This document shows positions 35,708 to 61,972 of a stretch of DNA of 64,000 bases, piece by piece (position 1 is the stretch's first letter; each line of letters opens with the position of its first letter). This stretch comes from a bacterium (lineage in GTDB: Bacteria; SAR324; JACQKK01). Location of the stretch: positions 1,440,001 to 1,504,000 of the forward strand of contig OZ251219.1 in assembly GCA_965240465.1 (NCBI GenBank), written 5' to 3'. The position numbers and the translations under genes are program-made. Under the pieces are notes generated by a model. The model was not told where the DNA came from, did no database searches, and saw only the letters and a list, made by a program, of their open reading frames with translations.

Positions 35708-35817
35708 TTATTATAATTTAGCCGAAAAAAAATTGCATTTTTGGCAAAATATTCTTAATAAATTAATTTTTAGTATTCAGTTTTTGCCTCTATAAGAGTG
35801 TTTCACCCTGTTATTAG

Positions 35818-45991: not shown

Positions 45992-46011
45992 GCAGAAAAT
46001 CGGGTGGTTCT

Positions 46012-46755
46012 ATGCCTGCTAAACAACGCTTAGACAGGCTGTTAGTAGAGCGCGGCTTAATTGATTCTCGTGAGAAAGCACAAGCTCTGATTATGGCGGG
46101 TAGGGTTTGCGTGGAGGGTGTTTCTCGTCTTAAAGCAGGGGAGTTGGTATTGGCGAGAGCTAATATAAAAGTGAAGTTTCCTCCTCACCCATTTGTGAGC
46201 CGTGGCGGGCAAAAATTAGCGACGGCACTCAGTCATTTTAATCTTGATCCTAAAGGGATAACAGCACTGGACATTGGTGCCTCTACAGGCGGATTTACCC
46301 ACTGTTTGCTCCTGAATGGTGCTACTAAGGTGATAGCGCTGGATGTCGGGTATGGACAGTTGGCTTGGGAACTACGTAAACATCCAAGTGTGGAGGTCAT
46401 GGAGAACGTCAACATTCGGCATTTGCCCGCAGGAAGTCTACCATTGATGGACTGGCTAGTTGTGGATGTCTCGTTTATATCTTTGAAAATCGTGTTGCGG
46501 AGTGCCGCATGCTTTCTTAAGAGTGGCGGGACTGTAATAGCCTTGGTTAAACCTCAGTTTGAGGCAGGCATACGGAATGTAAAAAAAGGCGGTAAAGTTG
46601 ATTCCAATGAGATACATGAAGAAGTCTTAAAGGAAATACTGCATTGTGGAAAAAATCTCGGCTGGCAATCACTAGGAATCACACCATCGCCTATAACAGG
46701 TAAGAAATCTGGCAACAAGGAATTTCTGGCCGCTTGGCACAGTCCCAAAAACTAG
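46012..46755 (+). CDS. tlyA: TlyA family RNA methyltransferase
   Basis: S4 domain RLDRLL, FVSRGGQKL, DIGASTGGFT, DVSFISL, KPQFE. Confidence 0.95.
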   Translation: MPAKQRLDRLLVERGLIDSREKAQALIMAGRVCVEGVSRLKAGELVLARANIKVKFPPHPFVSRGGQKLATALSHFNLDPKGITALDIGASTGGFTHCLLLNGATKVIALDVGYGQLAWELRKHPSVEVMENVNIRHLPAGSLPLMDWLVVDVSFISLKIVLRSAACFLKSGGTVIALVKPQFEAGIRNVKKGGKVDSNEIHEEVLKEILHCGKNLGWQSLGITPSPITGKKSGNKEFLAAWHSPKN

Positions 46756-46784
46756 CTCTGGCAGCTGAGATGGTTTGATATATC

Positions 46785-47573
46785 TCAATATTTTTTTGGA
46801 TCTGTTTTTATGTTCATGTATATTTGCCGTTTTGCTTGGGTAAATTTTTCTATAGAGTAACGTAGCATCGTACGGGGCATATTATGAGCGTGTTTATTGA
46901 GGAATTCTTCCAAGGTAAGTTGGTTTATTTTGCCTGCTTCACGCAACATCCAGCCCACTGCCTTGTGGATTAGGTCGTGGGGATCATGTAGAAGGCATTC
47001 TGCTATGCCAAAGGTATCCTGCAAATCTTCTTGGCGAATGAAATACATCGTCGCTACAATGGCGATGCGGCGACGCCAAAGATTATCTGATTGTGTCCAC
47101 TGGTACAGGAGCTTCCGAGAAGTAGAATACAAATGAGATCCAACAATAGTAGGAGCACTAATATCAACCAAATCCCAGTTATTAACTCGCTCCATCTTTT
47201 CTAAGTATAGATTATGTATAAGTTGGCGTTGCTGCGGGTTACATTTTCGGTATCTCATAACCATGATTATCAAGGCCAGCATGCGTTCTTCGTGAAATTT
47301 TGAATCTAATAATTCAACCAATACAGCTGAGGATGCTTGTTCAAATTTGCACGCACAACGGCGTATGTCGGGCACGACAATGCCCATAAAATGGTCGCCT
47401 TCTCCATATTGACCAGGCCCGGTTTTGAAAAAACGAGGGTAAAATACAGCCTTTTCAGCACAGATAAAATGCTTCATTTGCACGCGGATAGCCATTATAT
47501 CGGCTGTTGTAGCACCCTCTGTAGAAATAGCTTTTGTCACCGGTTTACTCAGCAAGATAGATTGAGAGTTCAT
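46785..47573 (-). CDS. AlkD-like DNA alkylation repair protein
   Basis: FFKTGPGQYGEGDHFMG, NNWDLVD, WRRR, KAVGWMLRE, MPRTMLRY. Confidence 0.88.
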   Translation of the reverse strand: MNSQSILLSKPVTKAISTEGATTADIMAIRVQMKHFICAEKAVFYPRFFKTGPGQYGEGDHFMGIVVPDIRRCACKFEQASSAVLVELLDSKFHEERMLALIIMVMRYRKCNPQQRQLIHNLYLEKMERVNNWDLVDISAPTIVGSHLYSTSRKLLYQWTQSDNLWRRRIAIVATMYFIRQEDLQDTFGIAECLLHDPHDLIHKAVGWMLREAGKINQLTLEEFLNKHAHNMPRTMLRYSIEKFTQAKRQIYMNIKTDPKKY

Positions 47574-47584
47574 ATCAAAGTAAG

Positions 47585-47656
47585 CTCCCCGAGCAAGATT
47601 CGAACTTGCGACCTAGTGGTTAACAGCCACCCGCTCTACCGCTGAGCTATCGGGGA
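47585..47656 (-). tRNA. tRNA-Asn(GTT), CCA not encoded
   Basis: TCCCCGATAGCTCAGCGGTAGAGCGGGTGGCTGTTAACCACTAGGTCGCAAGTTCGAATCTTGCTCGGGGAG folds as a cloverleaf. Confidence 0.97.
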
Positions 47657-47816
47657 ATGTGTTACATAAGATAATGCAACAGGCACTTAAGCATATCGCA
47701 AAACAAATTGATAAAGTCAAATTGTCATCAAACTTAGTACACAATCAAACCACAATAGCAAGGTGATACTTGTTTAGGCATCTTGATGAAAGCACCAGCT
47801 AACATTATGTTGCTAT

Positions 47817-48716
47817 TTAAGGATTATTGCCACTGCTATTATCTTTCCAATGAGCACGCACTGTAAGTACACCCCGGGGTGAATTGACATCCAACGGCTC
47901 GTTGTCCAGACGCAGGTAGCGTGTACTGAGTACGTGAACAGCATCAACATCTCCTTGCTCTATCAGGGATACTAATTCTTGTCCCGTGCTGGATAGAACA
48001 TCTAGTAGCAACACTTTCTCATCTGATTGGACATTAAAAAATGGATGGGGCAAGGCGTTCATGTTCTCATTTTTAATAGCTTGAGTTAATTCTACTTCTT
48101 CCCAGCAATTATCATCACTTAAGACATGGAGGCATGCACGCATTTGATCTGGAGTATTGGCATCAGTAATCTTTGGCTGATTATTTTTCAATCTACGATA
48201 GTAAACAGATCCATTACGAAGGATAGTTTTCTCTGTGTCCAAGCTATTTGCCCATGGCGGATCTTGGGTAGTTGTAGCACTAATTATTTCCCCTTGGCTG
48301 TTTAGACGCAGAAAAATAAACATTGGGATTTCACCATAGCCTAAATCATACGGTGGCGATGATCGCAGATATTTGAATGATACTGCAGCCGGGTTATTAA
48401 TGCTAATTCCTGGAGCATATGTGAGGTGGATAGTAATATGTGCCTGAGTCCGGTTTATTCCATAGCCTCCAAATGATAAATCAGCAAAAGAATTAAATTT
48501 GACTCTTGGCAAAAAATAGTAAGTATTAAATAAAAAAAACCTATTATTTGTATCACTAAAATGGTTAATTGAACTTCCTATATTTATACCTCTCGGTTTT
48601 ATTTTTGGGGCTCCATATTCACCCATAGCTACAGCAGAAAAATTATCGTAGAGTTGATTCATTTTTGATGCAGTTAGTACATCTCCAATGTTGAAATCAA
48701 GATTAGACCATACCAT
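47817..48716 (-). CDS. Putative tail fibre / receptor-binding protein (likely start 48716)
   Basis: Last gene of the tail module. N-terminus MVWSNLDFNIGDVLTASKMNQ resembles tail-fibre anchor segments. GGAG RBS. Confidence 0.55.
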   Translation of the reverse strand: MVWSNLDFNIGDVLTASKMNQLYDNFSAVAMGEYGAPKIKPRGINIGSSINHFSDTNNRFFLFNTYYFLPRVKFNSFADLSFGGYGINRTQAHITIHLTYAPGISINNPAAVSFKYLRSSPPYDLGYGEIPMFIFLRLNSQGEIISATTTQDPPWANSLDTEKTILRNGSVYYRRLKNNQPKITDANTPDQMRACLHVLSDDNCWEEVELTQAIKNENMNALPHPFFNVQSDEKVLLLDVLSSTGQELVSLIEQGDVDAVHVLSTRYLRLDNEPLDVNSPRGVLTVRAHWKDNSSGNNP

Positions 48717-48787
48717 ATAATTCTCCAAATTTATGATTAACAAAAAGCTAACGCTTATTAAATATATCAATTAGTATAAAAAATTAA

Positions 48788-49981
48788 TTACACTAATAAA
48801 AATCTTTGATCATCTAGTTGTCCACGTACAGGATGATCTAATTTTAATCCAAGTTGCTCTTGCATTGTATTGAGCAAGCTAATTTTAATGGAACATTTCT
48901 GCATATCAATTTCTTGAGACATAACCCGCCAAGGTATATCTAGATCTACCCCAAAATTTTCTCTTTGCTCCATAGTAATTATTTCTCCCGGTTTGCAAAG
49001 AATGGCAGCCAAAGTACTATCTACAGTTATTTTAGTAGAAGGTTCCTCAAGCGTATACAGAGTACTCCTAGCAGTATAGTTAGCATCGGTATGAGAGATA
49101 TGCCATATATTATTGCTCTTTAGTATCAATTTACGTTCACCAAAACGATTAATTGATTCATCATTTCGTGCTTCAGCTACAGTACTCCAAGTACGATTTT
49201 GAGTAGAATAATCTGCATGTACAAAAATACTATTTTTTACACTCTTAGGAGAAGTTTGTACCTGTATATTTGAAATGTACTTAGAAATAAGAGTGTGGTG
49301 AGTAGTAGGACGGGAAGTTATTTGAGAAAAACTAATCCTGCCATCTTCAATATAAATTGCAGAGCGTGCTATATCTGCTAATTGGCGTAAAGCATATCCC
49401 AATTTTGTATCCTTAAAATATGCTTTCATGCGAATATTATTCTCTCTCCAGATTGTTTCCCAATTGGAAAAAGAATTATAATTTATATCTGGATTATTGT
49501 TATTCTTTAAAGAAGAAAGTCCTCCATAGCTGGTAAGTAATAACCATGCTAATTCTGAGGGTAAGTATCTTGACCCGGTTAGATCAAGAGGTTGTTCATT
49601 TCCTAATAATACTTCTGTTACTTTGCTGATATTATCCTGTGCTTGCAGGAGAATATAGTTTTCCAAGATGGATGCTTGTTCCAAACGCCCTTGGAATAAA
49701 GTGATATATTGATATCCTGTGATTCTGTGTACCCATCCTAAGCGGATTTTACATACAGTAAGTAAAGCCTCATTGCTGGCTAATTTTTCTGCCAGAGCGT
49801 TTTTATAGGCAAGTTTAATGGATATAGTGACTGGACGCAGATTGTTCCATTCACGATTGACACGCGGCCATTGTTGTACTAGATGAGATATGTCTTCATT
49901 ATCAAGTATTAATTGCCTTTTTGGACGTGATAATGACGCCCTCATTTGTTGCCTAAACCATGAAGAAACCGAGTAAGACAT
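48788..49981 (-). CDS. Putative tail hub / baseplate protein
   Basis: Position after the distal tail gene. ESINRFGERK matches the SIxxYG hub motif. Confidence 0.55.
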   Translation of the reverse strand: MSYSVSSWFRQQMRASLSRPKRQLILDNEDISHLVQQWPRVNREWNNLRPVTISIKLAYKNALAEKLASNEALLTVCKIRLGWVHRITGYQYITLFQGRLEQASILENYILLQAQDNISKVTEVLLGNEQPLDLTGSRYLPSELAWLLLTSYGGLSSLKNNNNPDINYNSFSNWETIWRENNIRMKAYFKDTKLGYALRQLADIARSAIYIEDGRISFSQITSRPTTHHTLISKYISNIQVQTSPKSVKNSIFVHADYSTQNRTWSTVAEARNDESINRFGERKLILKSNNIWHISHTDANYTARSTLYTLEEPSTKITVDSTLAAILCKPGEIITMEQRENFGVDLDIPWRVMSQEIDMQKCSIKISLLNTMQEQLGLKLDHPVRGQLDDQRFLLV

Positions 49982-50017
49982 AAGCTATTCCGTACATAAA
50001 ATATTTTGGGACTGAAA

Positions 50018-50398
50018 CTAGGGTATAATTTGGTAAGATTCTAGTTCTATTTTGCCTCGATAGCGGTTTGCATAAGGGAGAACATGTTGTCCCAATGGTA
50101 TCCTGCGATTGACCAAGATAACCTGATAAAGAGGTGTTGCAGTACCGTCTTCCCAGAATAAGGGGGTATTGTTTTGCCACCATCTGTTGATGAGTTCTGC
50201 TTCTTCGGTTTCCATGTGGCTGACGGAGAATCGCCAGCGTAGCCATTTACCAAAATTGTAGCGGAACATGTTACCAGCTTGTGTTCGGATGCTGGATTCA
50301 ATTTTTTGATGATCTCGGATGTAGTTGTATTCGGGATGCAGAGCTACGTTTGTTGACGAGTTTGCAAAGAGCAAGTATTTGCGAGAGTTATCGGTCAT
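50018..50398 (-). CDS. Putative distal tail protein
   Basis: Immediately after the tape measure, 126 aa, RTQAGNMFRY...WRFS pattern. Confidence 0.5.
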   Translation of the reverse strand: MTDNSRKYLLFANSSTNVALHPEYNYIRDHQKIESSIRTQAGNMFRYNFGKWLRWRFSVSHMETEEAELINRWWQNNTPLFWEDGTATPLYQVILVNRRIPLGQHVLPYANRYRGKIELESYQIIP

Positions 50399-50423
50399 AT
50401 TTGATTAGGGGATTAGGAGTGTA

Positions 50424-51446
50424 TCAAGTTTCGGTGGCAAATTTTGGATAGACACCACTTTCATAAAGAGAATCCATGGCACCGTAGATTCTAACGGCCA
50501 ATAATTCCCTAAGGTCTCGTTCGTCCATACGCAGTAGGGAATCTATGTGGGTAGCGTTTTCCAAGATATGTACCTCCATTTGCTGAACTACGATGTTGCC
50601 TTGGGAGGAATCTTGCTTGTCTATAAATTGGGTTAAATCTTTATTTTGTGAAGGGGATAGTATTCGTTCGCCTTTATCTAAGAGATAGGTTTGCTCTTTT
50701 GGGACAAAAGAAAGACCACCATGTGCGGCTGGGGGATTTTGCTTAGCAATAGAACTCGCAAGAGCCAATCCGCTAGCTAGCTCAGCAGCTGCTACTACTG
50801 GTCCTAATGGCCAAGGAATCTCAGCTGCAGCTTTAGAAGCACGCAAATATGCAGCAATAAGGGATTGCCCAGATGCAATAGCCTTATAAGCTTGGAATCC
50901 CCGGATACCTTGACTTTTAGATATTGTTGCTAAGCGTCCTAATCCATCGGAAACCGATTGCAAGCGTGCCAGATTCTCAGATCTTTGCAGTGCAGTGAGG
51001 CTTTTTTCATGTTCGGAGTGTAGCTGCTGTAATTGATTATTATGCTGCTTAGTGCGGTTGATCTCGTAAGATTGGGATTTAGAAACATTGGCTTCTTTTT
51101 GCAGATCATGTTCGCTTTGTTGTTGGATAATTTGCTCATTTTCTAAGGCTTTTGCTTCAAGGTACTGCTTAGATTGGTTTCGTTCCAAATCGTTGCGGTG
51201 ATTAAGGTAATCGGCACGTTGTGCGAGTGAAGCTTCGTCATTAGCAGATTGGCGCGCCTGGGTATGAGCCTGATTATTGGCACTTTCTTGGGTAACGCGG
51301 TTTGTTTCTTTAGTTGATTGGCTTATTATCCGATTACTTTCCTGTATGTCATTGGCACTAGTAAGTGAACGTTTGCCCATGCGTTCTACAGTAGCAGAAA
51401 AGGCATCGCGAGCTTCAATAACAAAGGATATTTTTTGTTCGGGCAT
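50424..51446 (-). CDS. Short tape measure protein (340 aa)
   Basis: N-terminal ISFVIEARDAFS, helical Q/A-rich body, C-terminal AHGGLSFVPKEQTYLLDKGERIL motif. Follows the chaperone genes. Confidence 0.8.
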   Translation of the reverse strand: MPEQKISFVIEARDAFSATVERMGKRSLTSANDIQESNRIISQSTKETNRVTQESANNQAHTQARQSANDEASLAQRADYLNHRNDLERNQSKQYLEAKALENEQIIQQQSEHDLQKEANVSKSQSYEINRTKQHNNQLQQLHSEHEKSLTALQRSENLARLQSVSDGLGRLATISKSQGIRGFQAYKAIASGQSLIAAYLRASKAAAEIPWPLGPVVAAAELASGLALASSIAKQNPPAAHGGLSFVPKEQTYLLDKGERILSPSQNKDLTQFIDKQDSSQGNIVVQQMEVHILENATHIDSLLRMDERDLRELLAVRIYGAMDSLYESGVYPKFATET

Positions 51447-51496
51447 GGTACGTAAAAAATAAATGGCAATAGATTGAAAGCAATAAGGATAAAATG

Positions 51497-51748
51497 TTAA
51501 TGAGAAGAAGATGCTTGTATGCGATACATTTCACTGGTTATCCATTCAAAGATTTCCACTACATGATGAGGTTGTTCGGCATAACATCTACCGTCGGGCC
51601 AGGCTGTTTGCATCCACCCACCTTGCAGATATGCGTGGCAATTTTTCCAAGCATCCCACCATGTGTAAATAGATAACCCGGCAACTGTAAGAGGCGCCAT
51701 CAATCGCATGCCTTCGGCAATACGGTGGATGGCGCGGCGGACTTTTTT
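51497..51748 (-). CDS. Tail assembly chaperone C-terminal extension, reached by -1 frameshift
   Basis: The -1 frame is open from the slippery site A AAA AAG to stop 51497 and contains WPDGRCYAEQPHHVVEIF. Confidence 0.7.
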   Translation of the reverse strand, partial: KKVRRAIHRIAEGMRLMAPLTVAGLSIYTWWDAWKNCHAYLQGGWMQTAWPDGRCYAEQPHHVVEIFEWITSEMYRIQASSSH

Positions 51749-52095
51749 TCGCTGGGTTCCTCTTCCTGCAGTTGTCCACCGCGAATCAAAGTAGCTAACA
51801 AGGCATCTACTAGAGGACTAAAATACTGATGTTCTAAGACATCCTCTAAACTGGCTGACACGCCTTTAATCTTAAATCCAGAAAATGAAGTAATATAATC
51901 AGGGAGTATCTGTACCCCTATTTCTTGTAACCGTAGATTTTGCTCCCAAGCATTACTGGGAGAATTTTCTTCTGTAGGATGTAAATAGGGAAGCAGACTA
52001 AGCATATCTTTGCGTTTCAATGCCCGCATACTACCAGTGATAGTATGTCCATCAAATAATATACTGAATTCAAACTGTGGTAAAAATTCTTTCAT
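51700..52095 (-). CDS. Tail assembly chaperone
   Basis: Lies between tail tube and tape measure and carries an in-frame slippery heptamer. Confidence 0.7.
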   Translation of the reverse strand: MKEFLPQFEFSILFDGHTITGSMRALKRKDMLSLLPYLHPTEENSPSNAWEQNLRLQEIGVQILPDYITSFSGFKIKGVSASLEDVLEHQYFSPLVDALLATLIRGGQLQEEEPSEKKSAAPSTVLPKACD

Positions 52096-52104
52096 GATAA
52101 ATTC

Positions 52105-53082
52105 TTATGTAGTGTAGGGAGCATGAGTGTTAACCAAGGTAATATTTATGGAATTTCCATTAGCTTGACGAATTGCTTTTGCTGAGAATTCAGTTTCTAA
52201 GGGACCAGGACCGCTTATTGTAGGCTTTAGTTCAACATATTGAATTTCTGGTAATGATATTTGTACAGATTCTTTAACATCACCTGATAGTGTCACACCA
52301 CTTTCAAATTCTAGGCTAAAAGAACGTCTTTCTTGATTAAGAAAAGCTACATATTCTCTATCATTATCAAATCGTGCACTACCTTGCAGGCTTATAGTTC
52401 TAAAGCCGCTTCTTTGTATCCGTGAAGGATACTTACCTCCATCTAGTGTATGTAATACCTCTAGGTTTTCATCTAATTGAATACTAAGTTGAGTGAAATC
52501 ACCATATAAGTCATTATTGATATTACACTTAGCCTGTTGCCAGCTTAGTGGCTTATCATAATTATAAGTAACACTCACAGGATTAGTGTCTTTGAAGCGT
52601 CCTCCCAGCATTCCTAATTTCAATTTAAGGAATTCTCCATTAGCGACACTTAGCTCTAGTGAAGATGCTACCATATCGTAAAATACCCTAGCTTTACTGT
52701 CGCCATGGAAGTGCTTGTATATGGCAAGCGGATGGTTAACGAATTTGCTGTTATGGTCCTGATTTTTGGGGGAAAACAGGTGAACGTAGTAATTGTTGCT
52801 TGATCTTACAGAATAAGAATTTCCTAAAACAGATTGAAATAATAATCCTACGGCTAAAGGTGAGGCTTCTACTGACAGCTCCCCACTGATGGTAATAGGT
52901 CCAGAATGAAGATTTCCTTCATCAAATACACCGTGCATATTTTGCTCTACCAAGGGTGGTTGTTCTACCGATACTGATTCTGATAGTAGTGGTAACCATT
53001 GCAAGGTAGGCATTCTAAATTGATTTGTACTTGTAGCAGACTGAAAGCCTATCGCCAACGAAGCATTTTGTCCGTACTTCAT
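52105..53082 (-). CDS. Major tail tube protein (non-contractile type)
   Basis: Beta-rich 325 aa protein with strong AGGAG RBS, in the canonical position. No sheath gene nearby. Confidence 0.75.
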   Translation of the reverse strand: MKYGQNASLAIGFQSATSTNQFRMPTLQWLPLLSESVSVEQPPLVEQNMHGVFDEGNLHSGPITISGELSVEASPLAVGLLFQSVLGNSYSVRSSNNYYVHLFSPKNQDHNSKFVNHPLAIYKHFHGDSKARVFYDMVASSLELSVANGEFLKLKLGMLGGRFKDTNPVSVTYNYDKPLSWQQAKCNINNDLYGDFTQLSIQLDENLEVLHTLDGGKYPSRIQRSGFRTISLQGSARFDNDREYVAFLNQERRSFSLEFESGVTLSGDVKESVQISLPEIQYVELKPTISGPGPLETEFSAKAIRQANGNSINITLVNTHAPYTT

Positions 53083-53172
53083 AATATCTCCTGTAAGGTT
53101 GTGAAAAAAATAACAAGTAAGGTAATAAATATCAGTAATGAAAATAGTAATATAATTGTAATAAGATGGTAT

Positions 53173-53637
53173 TTAACAAGGGATAGTTTGTAGAGCAATT
53201 TCATTGGTGAACAACCACGTATCGGCGTTAATATCCCTTTGAAACGGGGATATCTCCATTTCTTCCATGGCTAGTAACACGCCGCTAAGCAGAAGATTAC
53301 TGTAAAGAGCACTTAGTAGCAGATTTTGGATTTTATATAGGCGTTTGCTTGCATCTTGAGAACTTTTATGGCTAGAATCTTGAAGGTAGAGTAGCATTTC
53401 TAGTTGTGATTGCCATAATTTTGAACCCCCTAAGGTATGGGGTTTCAATTGCAATCTACCCGGATAGATTCCTAGCCAGGGTGTTAAGCTGATATCACGA
53501 TTGATGGGTTCAGCATGCTGTATTGTTAATCCTGCTTTGGTAAGTGCACTATCCTGAGAAAGCTGGGTTACTATAGCCTGAGCTATTTCTTCTACTGGTA
53601 CGTAATTTGTTTGACTGCTAGGGGATTGTTGTTTCAT
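53173..53637 (-). CDS. Putative tail terminator / completion protein
   Basis: Position and size, with the PWLGIY pattern. Confidence 0.55.
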   Translation of the reverse strand: MKQQSPSSQTNYVPVEEIAQAIVTQLSQDSALTKAGLTIQHAEPINRDISLTPWLGIYPGRLQLKPHTLGGSKLWQSQLEMLLYLQDSSHKSSQDASKRLYKIQNLLLSALYSNLLLSGVLLAMEEMEISPFQRDINADTWLFTNEIALQTIPC

Positions 53638-53678
53638 ATTATTGTGACTATTTTTTAGGAATAGTGAGGAAACTTATG

Positions 53679-54119
53679 CTATGGAATGTATTTTGGAATG
53701 AAAGGCAATTTGGATAATCTGTCCTTAAGATTTTGCTTAAGCAATGTTTCAGCCTGGGGAAGCTCTGGGAACAGGGGCCTTTTGGGGACTCCCTGTCCTA
53801 GATGATGAAGCACCGCATATGCTGCAGTGTTGGTTGCTTTAATATCTTTTGAAGACTGGAGTAACTTAAAACTATTTCTTAATTTACCTGTGTTAACTAG
53901 CAATGGACGGGTGTTACGCTTTTTTGAACTACTGCTTCGGGGAATCCAGCTGCCACTTTGCAGTAACCTTCCTTGCCCATCAAAGTTTTTTTTAGTCCAA
54001 GCAATCATGGTTTTTCCTAATTCTTGGTGGGTCTGTTTTATCCAACTTGCAGATGCTTGAGGATTACTCCACTGACGTCCCAATTGCTCTAAGGCTTTAT
54101 GTGCATTATTTTGTGGCAT
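53679..54119 (-). CDS. Mu gpG-like virion morphogenesis protein
   Basis: NFDGQG...W...LLVNTGKLRNS...YAVLHHLG...PKRPLF. Confidence 0.75.
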   Translation of the reverse strand: MPQNNAHKALEQLGRQWSNPQASASWIKQTHQELGKTMIAWTKKNFDGQGRLLQSGSWIPRSSSSKKRNTRPLLVNTGKLRNSFKLLQSSKDIKATNTAAYAVLHHLGQGVPKRPLFPELPQAETLLKQNLKDRLSKLPFIPKYIP

Positions 54120-54162
54120 GGCAGTATATAAGTAGTAAAAATTACTGACGGCGGTTATTTTG

Positions 54163-54546
54163 CTAATCAGGAACAAAGGTGTTTTTTATATTACGGGTAC
54201 TGCTCCAAACTTGCTGTCCAGGAGAATTTACCCAGAGCAGTTCTCCGTTATCTAACACCATGGCCTGATTACCCTGGGAGATCTCTTTAATTCTATTTTG
54301 AATCTCTTTTTGGAACGGCAGCATAATTGTTTCATCTTTGCTACGCTGGAGGATGAGCAGATAGGCAAGATCAATAGTAAGGTCGCGAGCGGTTAAATTG
54401 TTTTGTCCTAAGGGAACGGAAACCCAAGGGGCAAGCATAGCTTCTAGCCTTAAAGAGGCATAGAGCAGATAGTGGTTAGTAAGTTCTTCATCACTGATAC
54501 GAGTGATGTAGCGTTCTTTGAATTGTGAAACAGTTGCATAAACCAT
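54163..54546 (-). CDS. Head-tail adaptor (Mu gp36-like)
   Basis: MVYATVSQF start, position after the capsid gene, DLAY motif. Confidence 0.65.
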   Translation of the reverse strand: MVYATVSQFKERYITRISDEELTNHYLLYASLRLEAMLAPWVSVPLGQNNLTARDLTIDLAYLLILQRSKDETIMLPFQKEIQNRIKEISQGNQAMVLDNGELLWVNSPGQQVWSSTRNIKNTFVPD

Positions 54547-54693
54547 GGCTAATAATTGGTAAAAGTTTGATAAATAATGAAGATTGTTTTCTAAGAGTAA
54601 GGGAGGGAGGCAATCGAGAAACACACACTAGGGCTTTTTTCTGCCAGGGGCCTCGGCAGGTTGGCCAAGGATTACCTCCCTATATTTGCAAGC

Positions 54694-55647
54694 TTAGGAT
54701 TTAACGTTTCTGACCAAATATCCAAGAGATTTGGCTGTAATCGCCTCTGCTTGGTAGTATCCGATCTCCACTTCATGACAATGTCTCCGAGTATCATAGG
54801 GGTGGCGAACAACCTGCATGTTAGGGATGTCAGACGCCGCCCAACGGAAGAAATAGCCAAATGAAGGAGTCTCCATAGAAGCTGCATCTGGTGCATAGTA
54901 GACCAAAACATTGCTTCCCCATATTTGTTGTAGGTTGATATCTAGGCCTTCCTCAGCACTATTTCTCCATGCATTTCCAACATGTATCTTGCACTCCAAT
55001 AGTTCTTCTATTTGAGATGAACTTGGGTAGAGACCTCCTCCAGATACAATGGAATTGTTAGCACGATCACTCACTGTTCTATGGCGACGGAACAATTGCC
55101 AAGCTTGTCCAGAAAACAGAACCCGATTGGGACGGTAACCAGTAGAAGATTCTACGCTGTCTATAGCAGCTAAGATATCGTTAAGAGGTTTAGCACCGGT
55201 GGCGTTCCATTTGTTGGTAGGGGTAGAATTACCTCCCACATTATCAGTGTTGGAAATAAGTTTGGCAAGGCGGACTTCCCAATCCAACAAGATAGAATCT
55301 TGCACGCGCATTATGCGTCCCTCTTCAAATTGTTGAATAAACACCGGATCGGCATTGATACGGTCTTCTAGGGTCACATCTACCTTAAGGGCATAATTGC
55401 TACAAAAGAATCCAGATTTAGAAATACGAGAGTGGATCTTATTAGCTTCGGTGCCACGAGAACGACTAGTGTCTTCGTGTCGGAATAAATCGGCTTGTTC
55501 AAATACCACATAGTTATCGGACTGTTTGGGGACCTGTACCACGGGGAATACTTGGTCAGCAATGAAGCCCATAGGGCGATAATTAAGAACAACATTAGAA
55601 AGGTGCTGGTCTACATGTAGAATGCGACCTTGCATGTATTCGCTCAT
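54694..55647 (-). CDS. Major capsid protein (HK97 fold)
   Basis: VDQHLSNVVLNY..FIADQVFPVV, TGYRPNRV, PSFGYFF. AAGGAG RBS. Confidence 0.85.
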   Translation of the reverse strand: MSEYMQGRILHVDQHLSNVVLNYRPMGFIADQVFPVVQVPKQSDNYVVFEQADLFRHEDTSRSRGTEANKIHSRISKSGFFCSNYALKVDVTLEDRINADPVFIQQFEEGRIMRVQDSILLDWEVRLAKLISNTDNVGGNSTPTNKWNATGAKPLNDILAAIDSVESSTGYRPNRVLFSGQAWQLFRRHRTVSDRANNSIVSGGGLYPSSSQIEELLECKIHVGNAWRNSAEEGLDINLQQIWGSNVLVYYAPDAASMETPSFGYFFRWAASDIPNMQVVRHPYDTRRHCHEVEIGYYQAEAITAKSLGYLVRNVKS

Positions 55648-55710
55648 GTTAAACTCCTTGGGGAACTGTTGATTATAAAAGTTGGGTTGACAAAGATTAT
55701 GTGACTAGAA

Positions 55711-56088
55711 TTAGGCCTTCTTCACTGGCGTTGCGAAATTGAATACTCCTGTGCCGACAGCACCCGAAGATACGTGGGTTCCTAAACAGCGTCCTATAAT
55801 ATAGGAATCTGTAGTAGCAGATACAAAATATCCAAGACTGTTAACAGTCAACAGAGTACCTGATGTAACACTGTTACCAGCGGAGAATTTCATTACCCCA
55901 GCATAGCCAAGGGTTACAAATTCTCCTGTTTTTCCTCCGTATTGCAGAATGCCAAGAGCAGTTTCGCCTGTACTGGCAGTACTACCACTTACCGTGATTG
56001 CTTTGAATAGATCACCAGAGGCTGTCAGATCATTGAGATCTTCTCCGGCCTTGATTGTAAGGTTGGAATAATTTCCTTGAATGGCCAT
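55711..56088 (-). CDS. Capsid decoration / cement protein (DUF2190-like)
   Basis: Small G/A/T-rich protein between scaffold and capsid genes, with AGGAG RBS. Confidence 0.65.
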   Translation of the reverse strand: MAIQGNYSNLTIKAGEDLNDLTASGDLFKAITVSGSTASTGETALGILQYGGKTGEFVTLGYAGVMKFSAGNSVTSGTLLTVNSLGYFVSATTDSYIIGRCLGTHVSSGAVGTGVFNFATPVKKA

Positions 56089-56103
56089 GGGGGGAACTCC
56101 TAA

Positions 56104-57261
56104 TTATTGAGGTTGAATGGTAAAGCTACGGTAGGCCTCAGACAGCTGCGGATGAGAACGCAAGACATGTTGTGCGGCTTGACTATAGCTGATGTTTAAT
56201 TCGTGCATTTTTCCTTCTGCAAGTGCTGCCAGTTGCTGAGCAGGTGTTGTTGCAGTATCCGATGAGGGCGGTCTCATAGAGGAAGCAGCTTCTTCTTGAG
56301 GAAGCACAGGGTTTGACTGTTGAATGAATTCCATTAACCAATTCAAGGAAATTTGAAGAGGTTTGCCTTCAGCAAAGTATCGTGCTTGGCAATTAATTTC
56401 GTTCATAAGAGAATCACGCAAAGTGGGACTTAATTTTCCTGATTTTACTTGAGTGTCACAGCTTCTTTTTGCACTTTGGATGGCAAGGGATAATGCCTTT
56501 GCCTGGCGCATTTTATGAGATTCGCGAAGATGTTCTTCTTGTTGCAGCTTATAGACACGCAGTTCGGAAAGTTCAGTCTGTTCTTCACTGTTGAGCATGG
56601 TGGAGGGCATATTTTTCTCCTTCCGCTTTAAGGTTAAAGAAGAGGTTGATGAATGAGATGCCTGCTGAGGAATGAATTCTTTTACATTCTCCAGAGGCAA
56701 GATGAATACCCGCGAATTGCGAGCACAAAAACCTGAAGGCCAATCTGCCGTCAGGAAAATTGATAAATCTTTCAAGTTAGTCACAGCAGGCAAGTCAGCA
56801 CCTAGCAAGGCTACGGCCTTCAGTGTTTTGCCTATTTTTCTACCCTTATATTCAGCCTCAAAGTAAATTTCTGCAGAAACCCTTCGCCAGCGACCTTCAG
56901 TAATAGCTTTTCGTACTACGGCAGGAACTTGAAGAAAGGTTGCTATTAATTTATCCCCCTCTACCCGCAATGCACTAACCCAACCCAAGGCTGGGTCGCC
57001 ATCGCTTTGCCCCAATAATGTTTGATCTTCATCATGACCAAATTTTAATGGAGGTTTTATTTCATTCTTTAGTAATTCAAAATTATGAGCAATCTCTTCC
57101 AAATCTTCTCGGCTGAAATACTCTCCATTCCATTTTCCTACACTCATAATTTCTGCTTCTAGAGAAGATCTACCTTCGGCATCTTTGTTTGGGATCTGGG
57201 AAACGGGACCTTTGTCATAAGGTAGCATTTCTTGTTCTTGGCGGAGACTCTGCATGTTCAT
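56104..57261 (-). CDS. Mu gpI-like prohead protease with C-terminal scaffold
   Basis: PLKFGH, PALGWV, WRRVSAEI, AVALLGADLPAV, followed by a coiled-coil C-terminus. Confidence 0.85.
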   Translation of the reverse strand: MNMQSLRQEQEMLPYDKGPVSQIPNKDAEGRSSLEAEIMSVGKWNGEYFSREDLEEIAHNFELLKNEIKPPLKFGHDEDQTLLGQSDGDPALGWVSALRVEGDKLIATFLQVPAVVRKAITEGRWRRVSAEIYFEAEYKGRKIGKTLKAVALLGADLPAVTNLKDLSIFLTADWPSGFCARNSRVFILPLENVKEFIPQQASHSSTSSLTLKRKEKNMPSTMLNSEEQTELSELRVYKLQQEEHLRESHKMRQAKALSLAIQSAKRSCDTQVKSGKLSPTLRDSLMNEINCQARYFAEGKPLQISLNWLMEFIQQSNPVLPQEEAASSMRPPSSDTATTPAQQLAALAEGKMHELNISYSQAAQHVLRSHPQLSEAYRSFTIQPQ

Positions 57262-57349
57262 TTATCCTTGTATTTAGGTTAGCTATGGTAGAAAACTTTT
57301 TGCGTTGGTGAATTTTAATAGGATGTTAAATGATTTTTATTTGATGTTT

Positions 57350-58801
57350 CTATACCATTGATGGATGGGGTTTTATGCCATTAGCACGGTTGTTTGGGGT
57401 ATCTGGATCAGGCCTTAGCTGTCCATTGGCACGGACTCCACTCTGCTGATTTGGAGGGTACGTACCGTTAGTTGATAAAGGGAATCCCAACAATTCACGG
57501 ATGCGAGATTCGTCTTCGGTAGAGGGGGTAACCAGACCACTAGTGACAGCATCCTTCCATCTGGCAACTGTATCTTGTCGTTGCTGCTCAGTTAGAGGAG
57601 CAAAAGAGAAGCGTGGGTATTCTACTAGTCCAAAATTCCACCATGATAGCTCGCGAAATAGCTGTTCATTGAGGACATCTGCGACTGACTCTGCAATGCC
57701 ATTAAGCACAAAGAAGAATGTTTCTAGTTGGATACGGCTCTGACTATATCCTCCTGTTTGTCCTTGTTCTGAAAATCCTAACAAGTTTGGCACTAGCAAA
57801 GCTTTAGCGATGGCCTTATCTCGTGCTGCGATGGCACGCTCAAAAGCATCTGTGGAAGGGGCATTAATCATTTCTAGCTCTACATTGGCGGGAGTAATAA
57901 TGGAGGTACGCCCACTTAGGTTTTGCATTGCTTGTTTGAGAGATTCCCTATCTTGAGAACTAATGGCACCAGATATACGCCCATGAACAAAACCAGATGC
58001 CATTCTCTCTAGGTAGATATTCCAGAATTTAAATATGTTTTCTTTAGCCCACCAATGGCGATAGCATTCGCGAAGATCAGACTCCCCGTATTGCAAGTTT
58101 TCTTCTGGCTTATTCACATGATGAATAAATCGCCTTAGTGGTAGCTGGACTTCTTTTACGCCTTGTTGCTGTATCAGTTTGGTAGTGTTACCGTATTTAT
58201 CTACTTCAAAGCGAAAGGTTTCTGCGGGGCGAAGCTTTAAGGAACGTAGGCTCCAACGATACTGCCCTTGCCAAATAACGGATTGGAATGTTTTTTCGAG
58301 CAAGCTAAAGCCAAATACATGACTGGTAAGTATGTCTCCCATGGCTTGATGGAAAGATCCACACAGATGTTTTTCCATCATTGTATGAAAGAAATCAGCA
58401 GCTATTTTTTGTTCATCTGTATTGGTCTCAAATCGCCACGAACGCGAGGTGATTACCGCTTGTTTTAATCCGAGTAAGGCACGGATCTGATCATCTTTCA
58501 TTACTCTGCGATATATTCCAGATCCCCAGCCTTCGCCCATTTCTGGATGCCAAGATACGCTTGGTTGTTGTTGAAAGAATGACCTTTCAGCCCATGCTAT
58601 TTCTTTGCTGTGAGAAGTCCATGGTTTAGTGCTACGCCGTGTATCTGCATGGAGGCGAATTTCATCGGATTGCATCCCGGTTGATGTACTTGGATTATGG
58701 GAAGAAGTTTGGTCATCCACGCTATGCTTGGCAGCTGTTGATTTGCCTAGCAAGCGATGAATGATACTCTGTCTGGGTCTTTTATAAGCTTTGGTAGGCA
58801 T
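57350..58801 (-). CDS. Portal protein (Mu gp29/DUF935-like)
   Basis: FGFSLLE, YGESDLRECY, DKAIAKALL, NEQLFRELSWWNFG. Follows the terminase. Confidence 0.85.
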   Translation of the reverse strand: MPTKAYKRPRQSIIHRLLGKSTAAKHSVDDQTSSHNPSTSTGMQSDEIRLHADTRRSTKPWTSHSKEIAWAERSFFQQQPSVSWHPEMGEGWGSGIYRRVMKDDQIRALLGLKQAVITSRSWRFETNTDEQKIAADFFHTMMEKHLCGSFHQAMGDILTSHVFGFSLLEKTFQSVIWQGQYRWSLRSLKLRPAETFRFEVDKYGNTTKLIQQQGVKEVQLPLRRFIHHVNKPEENLQYGESDLRECYRHWWAKENIFKFWNIYLERMASGFVHGRISGAISSQDRESLKQAMQNLSGRTSIITPANVELEMINAPSTDAFERAIAARDKAIAKALLVPNLLGFSEQGQTGGYSQSRIQLETFFFVLNGIAESVADVLNEQLFRELSWWNFGLVEYPRFSFAPLTEQQRQDTVARWKDAVTSGLVTPSTEDESRIRELLGFPLSTNGTYPPNQQSGVRANGQLRPDPDTPNNRANGIKPHPSMV

Positions 58802-60077
58802 GTTCGCTTTCAGAGTGAGGGTTTCCTAAAATAAATTCTCTTCTGGTTTCATTTATTCCCCAGCAGCAGAGAGCCAAAGCCATGACGCAATCGTCATGCT
58901 GACCTTGAGGTGCACTGGTGCGGATGAAACCCGAAGGTAGGCGATAATGTTCATAAGCAGCTAATTCGTTCATGGTTTCTCGGTGATAAGCCAAGCTCAG
59001 CATTCCTTGCTCCATACAAAGAGCCAAGAGTTCCACCAATTGCTGCTTGCGAGAGTGAGTGAATACCACTGGATAAGCTTCTGCTCCCATACGGTTCATT
59101 TCTTCACAGATGGGGTCACCACTGCCGCTGGCATCCACATAGAGCGGTGCATAGTTAAAACGACGAGATAATGCCAGCAATCTTTCTAATTGACCCCGCC
59201 ATGGAATTCGATGAAAACGCTCACAGTACACGGTACTACGAGTATCAACACAACCTACCCATGCAACGGTGAAATCACCCCAACGGGCTAGATCTACTCC
59301 CAGTATGTAGGAGTGTCCAACTTTAGGAGCAGCATCCATTTTTACAAGTTGTATATCGTTAAGAGATTGGAAAACCTTCTGATTTTCATTAGCAAATTCA
59401 GCCATAATCTCTTGTTGATAGACTGCCCTAGGCATCTGTTTCTGTAGACCTTCTAGCTCTTTTTTGCTGAGTAATGGATTGATATGAGAAGGATGCCTAA
59501 AACTTGCCCAGTCTTGCTGCTGAGTATCTTGTCCCCAATCAAACATACGCCTGAAAAGACCATCTCCTTTGGGAGCCCCAATGCAAAAAAATCGGGCATG
59601 AGGACTTTCTATAAGCATAGGTAGCAAGGTGTGGTAATAAATGGATTCATCACGCAAAACCAGTCCTGCTTCATTTATCCAGATGTAGTCATAAGCAAAC
59701 CCTTCCAACATTTCAGGGCGTTCTGCCGAACCGAAATCACACCATGAACCGCTTTCAAAATTTAGGACATGGTCGCTTGCATCCCATTTCCACTCTGAAC
59801 CCTTAAGGCAGGGACTAAAATAACGAGCTATCAACTTGTGGATATTTCTATAACTAGTATCTATCCACAAATGACAACTCCGAGGATGTAAGTGTGCCAA
59901 TTCTACCAGTCTTGTTATCGCACCATGAGTACCACCCGCCCGACGCCCTTTTACATAGACTATGTTTCTTGTCGGACAATCAAACACCTCAAGTTGATGA
60001 GGCAAATAAGACAATGTTATGGCTTTTTCTTTTGTGTAATCAGCGTGACAGGGGAGCATTTTAATATGTCTCTTCAA
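58782..60077 (-). CDS. Large terminase subunit
   Basis: PHQ, KGRRAGGT (deviant Walker A), IWINEAG, nuclease motifs GVDLARWGDFT and HDDCVMALAL. Confidence 0.92.
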   Translation of the reverse strand: MKRHIKMLPCHADYTKEKAITLSYLPHQLEVFDCPTRNIVYVKGRRAGGTHGAITRLVELAHLHPRSCHLWIDTSYRNIHKLIARYFSPCLKGSEWKWDASDHVLNFESGSWCDFGSAERPEMLEGFAYDYIWINEAGLVLRDESIYYHTLLPMLIESPHARFFCIGAPKGDGLFRRMFDWGQDTQQQDWASFRHPSHINPLLSKKELEGLQKQMPRAVYQQEIMAEFANENQKVFQSLNDIQLVKMDAAPKVGHSYILGVDLARWGDFTVAWVGCVDTRSTVYCERFHRIPWRGQLERLLALSRRFNYAPLYVDASGSGDPICEEMNRMGAEAYPVVFTHSRKQQLVELLALCMEQGMLSLAYHRETMNELAAYEHYRLPSGFIRTSAPQGQHDDCVMALALCCWGINETRREFILGNPHSESEHAYQSL

Positions 60078-60244
60078 TGAATATTCTTAGTTCATCAGCT
60101 CAGTGATAAACACTCCGTAATAATACGAAGGTCATAAAAAGCCCCATTAGTATGCTCAGGCATACAAAGCTTGTCGCTAAATGCAATAATCTACTGAGAG
60201 CTACTCAGTAAGATGTTTTTATTAGTGTGTGTTGGATTATCTTT

Positions 60245-60273
60245 ATGCTAAGGCATTAGAAATACTTTTTCAA
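60245..60273 (-). promoter_or_regulatory. Candidate sigma70 promoter driving the phage-like operon
   Basis: Minus strand TTGAAA-N17-TAGCAT with AT-rich upstream sequence, about 170 bp before terL. Confidence 0.55.
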
Positions 60274-60405
60274 GTAAAAAATGTAATTCTACGAAAAAAT
60301 AATTGGGGAATACCAAAAAGACAAAGCCATCCTCCCTTAACCTTGAAAAGGTAGCTTATGTGTTCTGCTTTCATCAGAGGATGAAGGTAAATTGATTACG
60401 GCAGA

Positions 60406-60741
60406 TTAGCCGGTAATTCTTTCTAGTAAGGGAGATATATTTCCCTGCAAGATAAAGGCGATAACCAGTCCGTAAATAACCAGAGATTCAATCAATGCCA
60501 AACCAATGATCATAGGAGTAAAGATGCGACCAGAAGCATTTGGATTGCGTGCAATACCTTCTAGGGCTGCCGAAACAGCCTTGCCTTGTCCCAACGCACC
60601 ACCCAAAGCAGCGATACCTATTGCTAATCCTGATGCCAAGGAAAGTCCTAATACAGAAATCTCGCCGTCTGCAACCGCATAAACTGGAGAAGCTCCCATT
60701 ACGAATAAGGTAGAAAACAGAGTAAGTGATTTTTTATTCAT
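60406..60741 (-). CDS. atpE: ATP synthase F0 subunit c, with N-terminal leader
   Basis: [18 protein letters not shown]. Confidence 0.96.
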
Positions 60742-60833
60742 TGCGTCTCTCTAAAAATAAGCCTCTCTAAAAAACAGAATTCGCTCCCTGCTGAGGAGTC
60801 TACAAAATAAACTGATAATAACCAATAAAAAAT

Positions 60834-61544
60834 TTAATGCGGAGCATCTTGTGCATCCTGAATGTATACCGCAGCAAGCAGTACAAATACTACCGCCTGT
60901 AGTACAGATACCAGTACTCCCAAAGCCATGAAGGGTACTGGTAATCCTACTGCCAATAAGGAACTAAAAACAGTCAACACTTGGTGGTCGCCAGTCATGT
61001 TTCCAAACAAACGCATTGAAAGCGACAGAGGCCTTACTAAGTGACTGATGATTTCAATGGGTATCATCAAAGGTGCCAACAATAGCAATGGCCCCATGAA
61101 TTTTTTGCCGTAGCCCCATCCGTGTGTTTTAAGTCCTATTGTGTGTGCAGTAAAAAATATCATTAGTGCTAAGGGAAGGGTGACATTGTACTGGTCTGTA
61201 GGAGCCGCGAAGCCCGGCACCAATCCCAACAGATTGTTGCATAGAATAAACAACATGAATCCTGCCAGTAAAGGAAATACCGAGCGTACTCCTTGATGAA
61301 TAATACCCTGAAAAAAACCAGACATCCTAACCACGATGAATTCTCCTAAGAAAGCAAAATTCACCTTTCCTTGAGGAGCAGTCACCTCTTGCTTACGAAA
61401 ACTTCTACCTACCAAGAAAGCAAAAACCACTAGCACAACCGAAGCTACCAGAGCATCCACTGCTGGATGAGGATCTATGCCATAACGTGCTAGCAAGTGT
61501 TCTAGTGGTTCAAAGAGAAAATTACGCCAAGAAATTTCGTGCAT
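60834..61544 (-). CDS. atpB: ATP synthase F0 subunit a
   Basis: NLLGLVP, RPLSLSMRLFGNM, LQAVVF. Confidence 0.96.
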   Translation of the reverse strand: MHEISWRNFLFEPLEHLLARYGIDPHPAVDALVASVVLVVFAFLVGRSFRKQEVTAPQGKVNFAFLGEFIVVRMSGFFQGIIHQGVRSVFPLLAGFMLFILCNNLLGLVPGFAAPTDQYNVTLPLALMIFFTAHTIGLKTHGWGYGKKFMGPLLLLAPLMIPIEIISHLVRPLSLSMRLFGNMTGDHQVLTVFSSLLAVGLPVPFMALGVLVSVLQAVVFVLLAAVYIQDAQDAPH

Positions 61545-61597
61545 TTTGTATAAGCTTAGATGATTAAATTCATACTTTATGAGTTCATAGCCAGCAT

Positions 61598-61972
61598 CTA
61601 CGTATTTTGGATGGTTTTAGCTGCTAAGGTGAGGCAGGCAGGCAGTATGGTAGAAATTCCAATCAATAGACCTAACGGGGATATCTGAAGCACGCGGAGG
61701 CAACCCGCAATGAATATGATGTTGAATCCCAATTTTAATGGATATACCCACCATGGAAAACGCCTAGACCTTTTAAGTAGCGAACGTACTAATTTTTCTG
61801 TCCATACCAAATTGGTAGTTACCAGTCCCACACCTAGCAGAACGGCTAGTACAAAGTCAAACTGACCTCGTATCAAGGGTAGTCCTATGAATAGTACGCC
61901 CCAGCCGATGGTAATCATCAACAAAGGGGAACGGCTGGGAAGGGTAGATTTTCTAACGTTCATCAAGATCAT
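61598..61972 (-). CDS. atpI: ATP synthase protein I-like membrane protein
   Basis: Hydrophobic 124 aa protein directly upstream of atpB. Confidence 0.65.
   Translation of the reverse strand: MILMNVRKSTLPSRSPLLMITIGWGVLFIGLPLIRGQFDFVLAVLLGVGLVTTNLVWTEKLVRSLLKRSRRFPWWVYPLKLGFNIIFIAGCLRVLQISPLGLLIGISTILPACLTLAAKTIQNT

Follow-up and report, generated by a model that had tools for sequence, protein, structure and literature searches.

The DNA analysed here, hereafter the window, is a stretch of 64,000 nucleotides from a bacterium of the SAR324 lineage (positions 1,440,001 to 1,504,000 of the forward strand of contig OZ251219.1, assembly GCA_965240465.1). On its minus strand, at window positions 47817–60077, lie 15 intact, co-oriented open reading frames (ORFs) that span 12.3 kb, with short gaps or overlaps between them, and encode the head, packaging and tail proteins of a tailed phage. 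We propose that this cluster represents the main locus of a phage-particle system that has been domesticated, fixed in the chromosome and put to use as a gene transfer agent (GTA), a reading to which we assign a probability of about 0.6. Judged from sequence comparisons across the host family, the complete head-packaging-tail set has been inherited vertically under purifying selection, and the cluster is not a recent prophage. Domestication is well supported, and we infer that the particles package and transfer host DNA.

The single-contig genome that carries the window, G000, measures 1,599,138 bp and that of its congener, G001, 1.7 Mb; the genomes of other members of the family range from 2.3 to 5.2 Mb. 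Metagenome-assembled genomes of the family are labelled SAR324, Deltaproteobacteria or plain 'bacterium', these names being the depositors' own. An independent contig from a public sequencing run covers window positions 46000–61655, across both junctions of the cluster, and shows no joint; aligned contigs from three runs were likewise contiguous throughout.

The cluster occupies a fixed position in the host family

In eight genomes representing seven genera (G000, G001, G004, G007, G011, G014, G015 and G017), the cluster follows the genes AT3-atpI-(orf124)-atpB-atpE; a preliminary description of this DNA had proposed looking for it at the same locus in relatives, and the search bore this out. 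At the distal end, a convergent aspartate/ornithine carbamoyltransferase (OTCase) gene stands right after the tail genes in G001, G007, G017 and G009, the last of which keeps this junction with the atp block 220 kb away. G000 itself has lost that carbamoyltransferase gene, retaining only a 28% paralogue, and a tRNA-Asn gene adjoins the cluster instead. These junctions show that the cluster already lay between the atpIBE block and the carbamoyltransferase gene early in the history of the family.

A profile of the major capsid protein (MCP) matched 13 of the 19 family genomes, including G016, which has a divergent copy only, and not one of 69 genomes sampled from the phylum's six other families. 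With the sister family as outgroup, the host tree places cluster-bearing genomes on both sides of the deepest split within the family, and the simplest history is one early acquisition followed by several losses. G008, G002 and G012 have no cluster after atpE, over 13.5, 5.5 and 3.5 kb read, respectively, and no capsid gene in the assembly. Contig ends block a verdict on the locus in G003, G005 and G006, and in G013, G016 and G018 the contig stops within 1.4 kb of atpE.

Cluster genes have evolved with the host genome

Between G000 and its congener, synonymous sites in the cluster are saturated (pS 0.64–0.82), while dN is 0.17–0.36. Where computable, dN/dS is 0.07–0.16, compared with 0.09 for the flanking AT3 gene and 0.04 for atpB/atpE; these values come from the NG86 method alone at saturated dS, leave out the most distal gene (g16), and are best read as rough upper-range estimates. 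Cluster genes are uninterrupted wherever they were found in ten relatives, and four stops inside high-scoring segment pairs proved to be natural gene ends or an upstream start. The dN/dS analysis suggested in the preliminary description thus returned low ratios, saturated dS and no pseudogenes in ten relatives.

That description had also called for a comparison of terL and MCP trees with the species tree. A cluster tree built from terL, portal, protease and MCP was congruent with a host tree built from AT3, atpB and atpE, both containing the supported clades (G000,G001) and (G004,G017) and placing G007 with G014. Pairwise identities of host and cluster genes are correlated (r = 0.88 over 36 non-independent pairs). 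The trees differ only in the placement of G009, a long branch, where the host clade is not rejected by the cluster data (approximately unbiased test, p = 0.167). The GC content of the cluster likewise tracks that of the host, being 0.41 in G000, 0.48 in G001, 0.56 in G007, 0.63 in G009 and 0.71 in G017, and the cluster has been retained in two reduced genomes of 1.6–1.7 Mb. These two small genomes are strongly AT-shifted (GC 0.45–0.48 versus 0.53–0.71 in relatives), and the cluster has shifted along with them.

MCP identity across the family is 62–73%. The best MCPs of cultured phages, from Roseobacter RDJL phages and D3112-like Pseudomonas siphoviruses, are 27–28% identical over 97–99% of the length. 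IMG/VR contigs encode MCPs 38–48% identical, together with a longer portal and extra genes, and a metagenome scan yielded three loci only, with MCP identity of at most 65%.

Boundaries and gene content of the main locus

All features of the cluster and its flanks described below are on the minus strand. The preliminary description counted 14 intact, co-oriented genes, which equals our 15 if its 'chaperones' are taken as two. Upstream, the cluster is flanked by atpI-orf124-atpB-atpE, of which atpE (60406–60741; PF00137, 2e-20) is the conserved flank outside the element; downstream lie tRNA-Asn (47584–47656; ARAGORN), a neighbour in G000 only, and a DNA-alkylation-repair gene. The intervals of about 330 bp to atpE and 160 bp to tRNA-Asn given earlier measure 328 and 160 bp. 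The absence of an integrase, transposase, replication gene or duplicated att core was also reproduced: no integrase or transposase was found at the cluster, no direct repeats were found bracketing it, and the whole G000 genome has two tyrosine recombinases and no match to PF00665 (rve). We found no paralogues of cluster genes in G000 and, by tblastn with 454 ORFs from related prophage and viral loci, no early-gene homologues in this genome.

The tRNA-Asn gene was considered as an integration site and rejected, there being no bracketing repeat and no tRNA at the matching place in four relatives (G001, G007, G017 and G009); as a neighbour specific to G000, it is uninformative on integration. One of the two tyrosine recombinase genes lies in the window at 6149–7138 and the other at 309 kb; the two presumably make up a Xer pair. 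The window also contains a tmRNA gene (35817–36194) with the tag peptide AKNSDYTPMALAA. The F-type ATP synthase genes of G000 are split, atpI-orf124-atpB-atpE (window 60406–62216) lying 73 kb from the b-subunit genes (G000 1573798–1574757), and the break after atpE is also seen in relatives and in the sister family. Insertion of the cluster into an atp operon was rejected, as the atpF-type genes are 73 kb away and the cluster-less genomes checked do not have them after atpE either.

Upstream of terL, a consensus scan detected a promoter-like TTGAAA-17-TAGCAT (60273–60245), followed by a hairpin in the 5' untranslated region (60210–60192). This block (60192–60273) is kept between G000 and its congener despite the saturated synonymous sites. 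The strong Shine-Dalgarno (SD) sequences described for the virion genes were found before the genes for MCP (AAGGAG), the scaffold-like protein and the tail tube (AGGAG for both) and the protease (AAGGA); the remaining 11 ORFs have no strong motif of this kind.

Head and packaging genes

The large terminase gene, terL (58782–60077, with an alternative ATG start at 60059), matches phrog_2 at 2e-31. Its product has an intact C-terminal nuclease domain that matches PDB 5tge/5m1f at ~1e-21, and near the N-terminus all 11 family terLs compared have the motifs KGRRxGGT and WINEAG unchanged. At 75% identity to the congener and a dN/dS of 0.07, terL is the best-conserved gene of the cluster. Identity to phage terLs does not exceed 32%, the nearest being those of Tunturiibacter and Thermus phages, and terL is not Mu-like. 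The Mu-like head of the preliminary description holds for the portal only (57350–58801), which is of Mu type (PF06074, 7e-56, 190 bits; phrog_113, 6e-65).

Next in order come a head maturation protease, perhaps with a scaffold part (56104–57261; phrog_976, 1e-37), a small head protein of 125 aa (55711–56088) and MCP (54694–55647; phrog_1005, 7e-59; PF03864, 26.3 bits). The small head protein had been labelled 'cement'; it matches phrog_673, 'head scaffolding', at 9e-11 instead and is scaffold-like or a decoration protein. Three genes of the presumed neck follow. The product of g7 (53679–54176) is of the tail completion or Neck1 type (Mu gpG/P2 gpS) and matches phrog_26 at 1e-10; its score against PF05069, 24.0 bits, is slightly below the cut-off of 24.3. 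On either side of it are g6 (54163–54624), a conserved neck or head-completion candidate kept at the same position in nine of the ten relatives' loci, and g8 (53173–53637), a conserved neck or tail-terminator candidate kept in eight of the ten.

Tail genes

The tail tube protein (52105–53082) matches PF18906 (Phage_tube_2) at 1e-20 and phrog_290 at 3e-28. It is followed by two tail assembly chaperone genes, g10 (51700–52095) and g11 (51497–51709), the latter in the -1 frame of the former. A slippery heptamer, A_AAA_AAG, lies at 51748–51742 in the X_XXY_YYZ phase, 42 nt ahead of the stop codon of g10; reading in the -1 frame continues from there into g11 without a stop, and the congener has the same heptamer at the same position despite saturated dS. 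From these sequence features, g10 and g11 are a canonical chaperone pair with a predicted programmed -1 frameshift.

The tape measure protein (TMP; 50424–51446) is short, at 340 aa, and matches phrog_13674 at 2e-16 as well as seven other TMP families; ORFs that occupy the corresponding position in the loci of five relatives are 289–342 aa long. The distal genes are g13 (50018–50398), a tail-tip candidate that is 65% identical to the congener and 25–35% to the G007 copies; g15 (48788–49981), a tail-tip or hub candidate of 397 aa, which in a language-model search only resembles viral tail-protein clusters at 0.96–0.98; and g16 (47817–48770), a distal tail or receptor-binding candidate with only weak atlas leads. 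The g16 product is 51% identical to that of the congener (tblastn), and the gene has the lowest GC in the cluster. Its true start is probably Met19 (window 48716), to judge from the congener ORF, which begins at the corresponding Met.

Neither g6, g8, g13, g15 nor g16 matches any family even at E up to 5, and the earlier labels adaptor, terminator, Dit, hub and fibre were guesses by position. The non-contractile tail that had been described is probable: the cluster has a tube and a tape measure, and no cluster ORF matches a sheath family in Pfam or PHROGs, several ORFs being without any family, and among these only g15 and g16, at the distal end, are of sheath size. Between genera, the distal tail genes vary greatly: in G007 and G017 the homologue of g15 is 708 aa long, and G007 has additional ORFs before the carbamoyltransferase gene where G017 has almost none.

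Candidate lysis and small terminase genes are unlinked to the cluster

The preliminary description reported no repressor, small terminase (terS), holin or endolysin, which is correct for the window but not for the genome, where unlinked candidates exist. The search it proposed for unlinked lysis genes led to a cassette at G000 611,701–612,941, between prfB and a ParA-like gene. This cassette encodes an M15 endolysin (PF08291, 2e-21; phrog_894, 2e-42), a holin (PF11351 GTA_holin_3TM, 31.5 bits against a cut-off of 24.8; phrog_3427, 7e-33) and a spanin-like membrane/coiled-coil protein of 98 aa (phrog_462). G001 has the same cassette beside prfB, at 62–69% identity. In G005, G009 and G011, the gene immediately preceding terS-like/terL encodes an endolysin of this family. 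The holin family occurs in 4 and the endolysin family in 7 of the 19 genomes, all of them cluster-bearing save for a weak endolysin match in G018.

In all the larger relatives a conserved ORF, here termed terS-like, overlaps the start of terL, a position seen in eight relatives' loci. An AlphaFold2 (AF2) model of its product shows a helix-turn-helix (HTH) followed by a long helix. The ORF has no Pfam, PHROG, PDB-sequence or phage match, and Foldseek returned nothing for the fold at E ≤ 0.001. The terS-like gene is absent from the cluster locus of G000 and G001. A terS-like profile, which matches the ORFs beside terL in G004, G007 and G009 at 1e-39 to 1e-43, found an unlinked ORF in G001 (E 1.6e-7), and G000 carries a 317-aa syntenic homologue of this ORF at 1,328,719–1,329,672, beside a ScpA-like gene (BLASTP 4e-19, 35% identity; hhalign to the profile, E 1.9e-4 over 95 columns). 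The gene evolves much faster than the rest and has a Pro/Ala-rich insert. The proposed search for an unlinked terS likewise led to a candidate, a diverged terS-like gene. The missing genes do not form part of a rearranged prophage; they stand in small groups flanked by housekeeping genes, and the congener has them in the same places.

Two other places for terS were rejected. In the gap between atpE and terL the ORFs are of 28–41 aa only, and its conserved block resembles a promoter. A 122-aa ORF at 1.019 Mb was the top match in a search with a terS-like hidden Markov model (E 0.0067), but over only 30 HTH columns (hhalign 50%); the second match of the same search (E 0.07) is the G000 ORF described above as syntenic with the terS-like gene of G001. 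The 122-aa ORF follows an HNH endonuclease gene (G000 1018555–1019590) and has an HTH-like N-terminus and an AbrB/SymE-like C-terminus.

A glycosyltransferase and CI-like repressor locus is probably associated with the cluster

A gene of ~990 aa with the domain order GT4-methyltransferase-GT2 follows the capsid gene in G005, G006, G009 and G011, in a second cluster copy in G007 and in viral contigs. The G000 homologue of this glycosyltransferase (GT) gene encodes an 816-aa GT4-GT2 protein with 41–43% identity and lies at 1,290,998–1,293,448. Of the 13 genomes with the capsid gene, 12 also have the GT gene, G003 (61% complete) being the exception; the six others all lack it. Virion glycosylation by capsid-adjacent glycosyltransferases has reportedly been addressed in a primary study of mycobacteriophages. 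Where the GT gene is unlinked, in seven genomes, it belongs to a triad in which a gene for a CI-like HTH_31+Peptidase_S24 protein is divergent from a 120-aa ORF (orf120), which is followed by GT; the G000 triad spans 1,290,998–1,294,852. Glycosyltransferases beside phage capsid genes are taken to glycosylate the virion (PMC11256854).

The orf120 product has four invariant cysteines and occurs in 8 of the 19 genomes, all of them cluster-bearing. It has no Pfam, PHROG, PDB-sequence or phage match, and its AF2 model (mean predicted local distance difference test score 68.8; block averages of 80–87 over residues 31–100) found no fold match, with a best Foldseek E of 2.6 and a VIA-wide best Z of 2.4. 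Apart from the CI-like protein, G000 encodes no S24 protein, and its genome is without a LexA DNA-binding domain.

Proposed function and alternative explanations

The three unlinked loci (lysis, terS-like and CI-like/Cys-rich/GT) probably belong with the cluster; their assignment draws on adjacency in other genomes and on co-occurrence among related, non-independent genomes. We propose that the cluster would be expressed from its own sigma-70-like promoter upstream of terL and that procapsids would be built from the Mu-type portal, the protease, the scaffold-like protein and the capsid protein. TerL would fill these with chromosomal DNA by the headful, its partner probably being the unlinked, fast-evolving TerS-like protein (G000 1,328,719–1,329,672). 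A short non-contractile tail would be added, comprising the tube, the G/GT chaperones, the 340-aa tape measure and three tip proteins, and the unlinked endolysin/holin/spanin-like cassette would free the particles by lysing a fraction of the cells. The CI-like/Cys-rich/GT locus would probably contribute induction control and virion glycosylation. Particles of this kind could not spread the system itself; what they would bring to kin is host DNA. RecA, ComEC and DprA are present in G000, although these are common genes and thus weak evidence for a recipient function.

Selection appears to maintain DNA-filled particles, given that terminase and portal rank among the best-conserved genes. Since the system has no replication or excision function and its parts are scattered over ~880 kb, the DNA open to packaging would be the chromosome. 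Likewise, with four loci up to ~880 kb apart and no replication, excision or transposition function, the particles should not be able to propagate the system; the candidate genes lie at 0.61, 1.29, 1.33 and 1.49 Mb, and one head would probably not hold all of them, provided that the outlying loci are indeed members. Of the features that characterise GTAs, we find head-tail genes without replication, integration or excision genes, and vertical descent at a fixed locus under purifying selection; release by holin and endolysin is indicated by homology only. We consider it an attractive but tentative possibility, somewhat short of even odds, that this is an independent GTA with a Mu-type head, a short siphovirus tail, genes in four loci, virions glycosylated by a dedicated GT4-GT2 enzyme, a RecA-cleavable CI-like repressor, a Cys-rich activator and a drifted TerS, kept through genome reduction to 1.6 Mb.

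Several observations weigh against a GTA. The system is known here from its genes, with neither particles nor packaged DNA nor transfer on record, and no RNA run was found to contain the locus. If the head were Mu-like with T=7, it would have room for ~3 times the 12.3-kb cluster, so a particle may be large enough to carry the main locus. At least three family members (G008, G002 and G012) have no cluster downstream of atpE, making the system dispensable. The host tree used for the congruence analysis consists of three linked genes only, and the second, mosaic copy beside a Mu-like prophage in G007 makes exchange with active phages possible. The lysis cassette is tied to the cluster by adjacency in three other genomes, and its distribution is patchy. 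The assignment of terS is by position, and the likeness of the terS-like model to Sf6 TerS is within noise (Z 4.6, rank 25, root-mean-square deviation 4.7 Å over 87 residues, Foldseek E ~4). A homologue of the CI-like protein also occurs in the cluster-less G008, so that this protein may simply be the host's SOS repressor, and no operator-like 12-mer was shared upstream of the three loci tested (at most 2 mismatches, in at least 5 of 6 upstream regions, namely those of terL, the lysis cassette and CI/orf120 in G000 and G001).

The evidence for domestication would serve equally well for a defective-phage particle kept for another purpose, such as a PBSX-like killer that is induced by DNA damage, is released by lysis, adsorbs to competitors and kills them, and in which host DNA is incidental. 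The CI-like HTH+S24 repressor beside the cluster-associated operon suggests SOS-type induction as in PBSX, and variation within the cluster is greatest in the tail-tip genes, as expected of a targeting module. However, TerL is the best-conserved protein (75%, dN/dS 0.07) and a terS-like gene has been retained, which implies that DNA packaging itself is under selection, and no sheath or other contractile, membrane-puncturing apparatus was matched in the cluster. We know of few precedents for killing by a non-contractile particle without DNA-borne toxicity, and we regard this explanation as rather unlikely. If the element were instead helper-dependent or still selfish, activated by or recombining with related Mu-like phages of the family, its apparent conservation would stem from repeated input of these phages and not from any benefit to the host. 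Contig 1 of G007 carries the second copy, a mosaic (MCP 59%, portal 38%, no terL match, GT after MCP) that adjoins a Mu-like prophage with an rve transposase, two AAA_22 ATPases and an MCP 41% identical, and viral contigs with MCP identities of 38–48% share the portal-protease-scaffold-MCP-GT layout. The mosaic copy and its Mu-like neighbour are possibly living relatives of the ancestor. Repeated input is nevertheless hard to square with flanks that are conserved on both sides across genera, with a GC content that follows the host from 0.41 to 0.71, with a cluster tree that is congruent with the host tree and rejects no clade, and with MCP identities among orthologues (62–73%) far above those to any phage or viral contig; we consider it very unlikely.

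An inert cryptic prophage remnant awaiting decay would likewise have no integrase, replication or regulatory genes adjoining it, as is the case in G000, and could have lost the terS-like and lysis genes that are in the cluster in some relatives and missing from the G000 locus; some family members have lost the cluster altogether. Against this, the two congeners have kept all 15 ORFs, the slippery site and the promoter block intact even though dS between them is saturated, the cluster genes are intact in ten relatives, and the cluster has been retained in two genomes cut to 1.6–1.7 Mb, versus 2.3–5.2 Mb in relatives. Simple decay therefore has very little to recommend it, and a domesticated particle acting as a GTA remains the reading that we favour.

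Comparison with known phage-derived particles

The system resembles RcGTA, the Rhodobacter capsulatus GTA found in Alphaproteobacteria, in having a head-tail cluster without replication or integration genes, in its vertical inheritance and purifying selection across a higher taxon, in a holin of the same Pfam family (PF11351 GTA_holin_3TM) and in a short-tailed, siphovirus-like design. RcGTA is regulated by CtrA and GafA; neither is implied for the cluster described here. It differs from RcGTA in its phylum, in the associated locus of a glycosyltransferase and a CI-like/Cys-rich ORF pair, and in its Mu-type portal (PF06074), and it has no match to the HK97-type portal, protease and capsid or to the RcGTA tail families. 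A Pfam scan of 16 ORFs returned PF06074, PF03864, PF05069 and PF18906 only, in line with the earlier statement that the cluster is distinct from RcGTA. As the structural genes are of different families, the parallels to RcGTA are, by sequence, those of organisation and not of descent. A 'multilocus genome' with lysis genes elsewhere is attributed to RcGTA in PMC5026251, and PMC11841831 describes RcGTA TerS as divergent and the putative TerS of other GTAs as atypical; the dispersed layout and the atypical TerS candidate of the present system are parallels to these.

The Mu-type portal, gpG/S-type neck protein and probable non-contractile tail are shared with Pseudomonas transposable siphoviruses of the D3112/JBD67/JD18 group and with RDJL Phi 1. 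Unlike these phages, the locus has no DDE transposase, MuB, c repressor or Mu F-type head protein, its terL is of another type, and its position has been fixed over the whole history of the family. Thus, of the features that mark a Mu-like transposable phage, the portal and gpG types are present, and an early region of the rve and MuB type is not.

PBSX of Bacillus, present throughout a species group, packages host DNA, is controlled by an Xre/CI-type repressor, has a contractile tail and is encoded in one contiguous locus. In gene content, the present system would be like PBSX in its fixed particle locus, putative CI-type repressor and predicted release by lysis, and unlike it in that no sheath was matched and the genes lie in four loci. 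With BaGTA, VSH-1, Dd1 and VTA, to which it can be likened by description only, it would share the independent domestication of a tailed phage, in a different taxon; a divided genome is ascribed to VSH-1 too by a title in the reference list of PMC11841831.

Implications

In the literature covered, which lay outside subscription journals, we found no description of such a cluster in SAR324. Few independent GTA lineages are known experimentally, all of them from cultured organisms. If our interpretation is correct, the cluster would represent a further GTA lineage, in an uncultured SAR324-labelled group, and would widen the known range of phage domestication. It would also provide a gene set to seek in the host-derived DNA of marine 'viromes', and the glycosyltransferase and the CI-like/Cys-rich ORF pair offer leads on virion modification and on the control of GTAs by DNA damage. 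The occurrence of the same system in genomes of 3–5 Mb and in streamlined genomes of 1.6–1.7 Mb would constitute a natural experiment that bears on the benefit of GTAs to their hosts.

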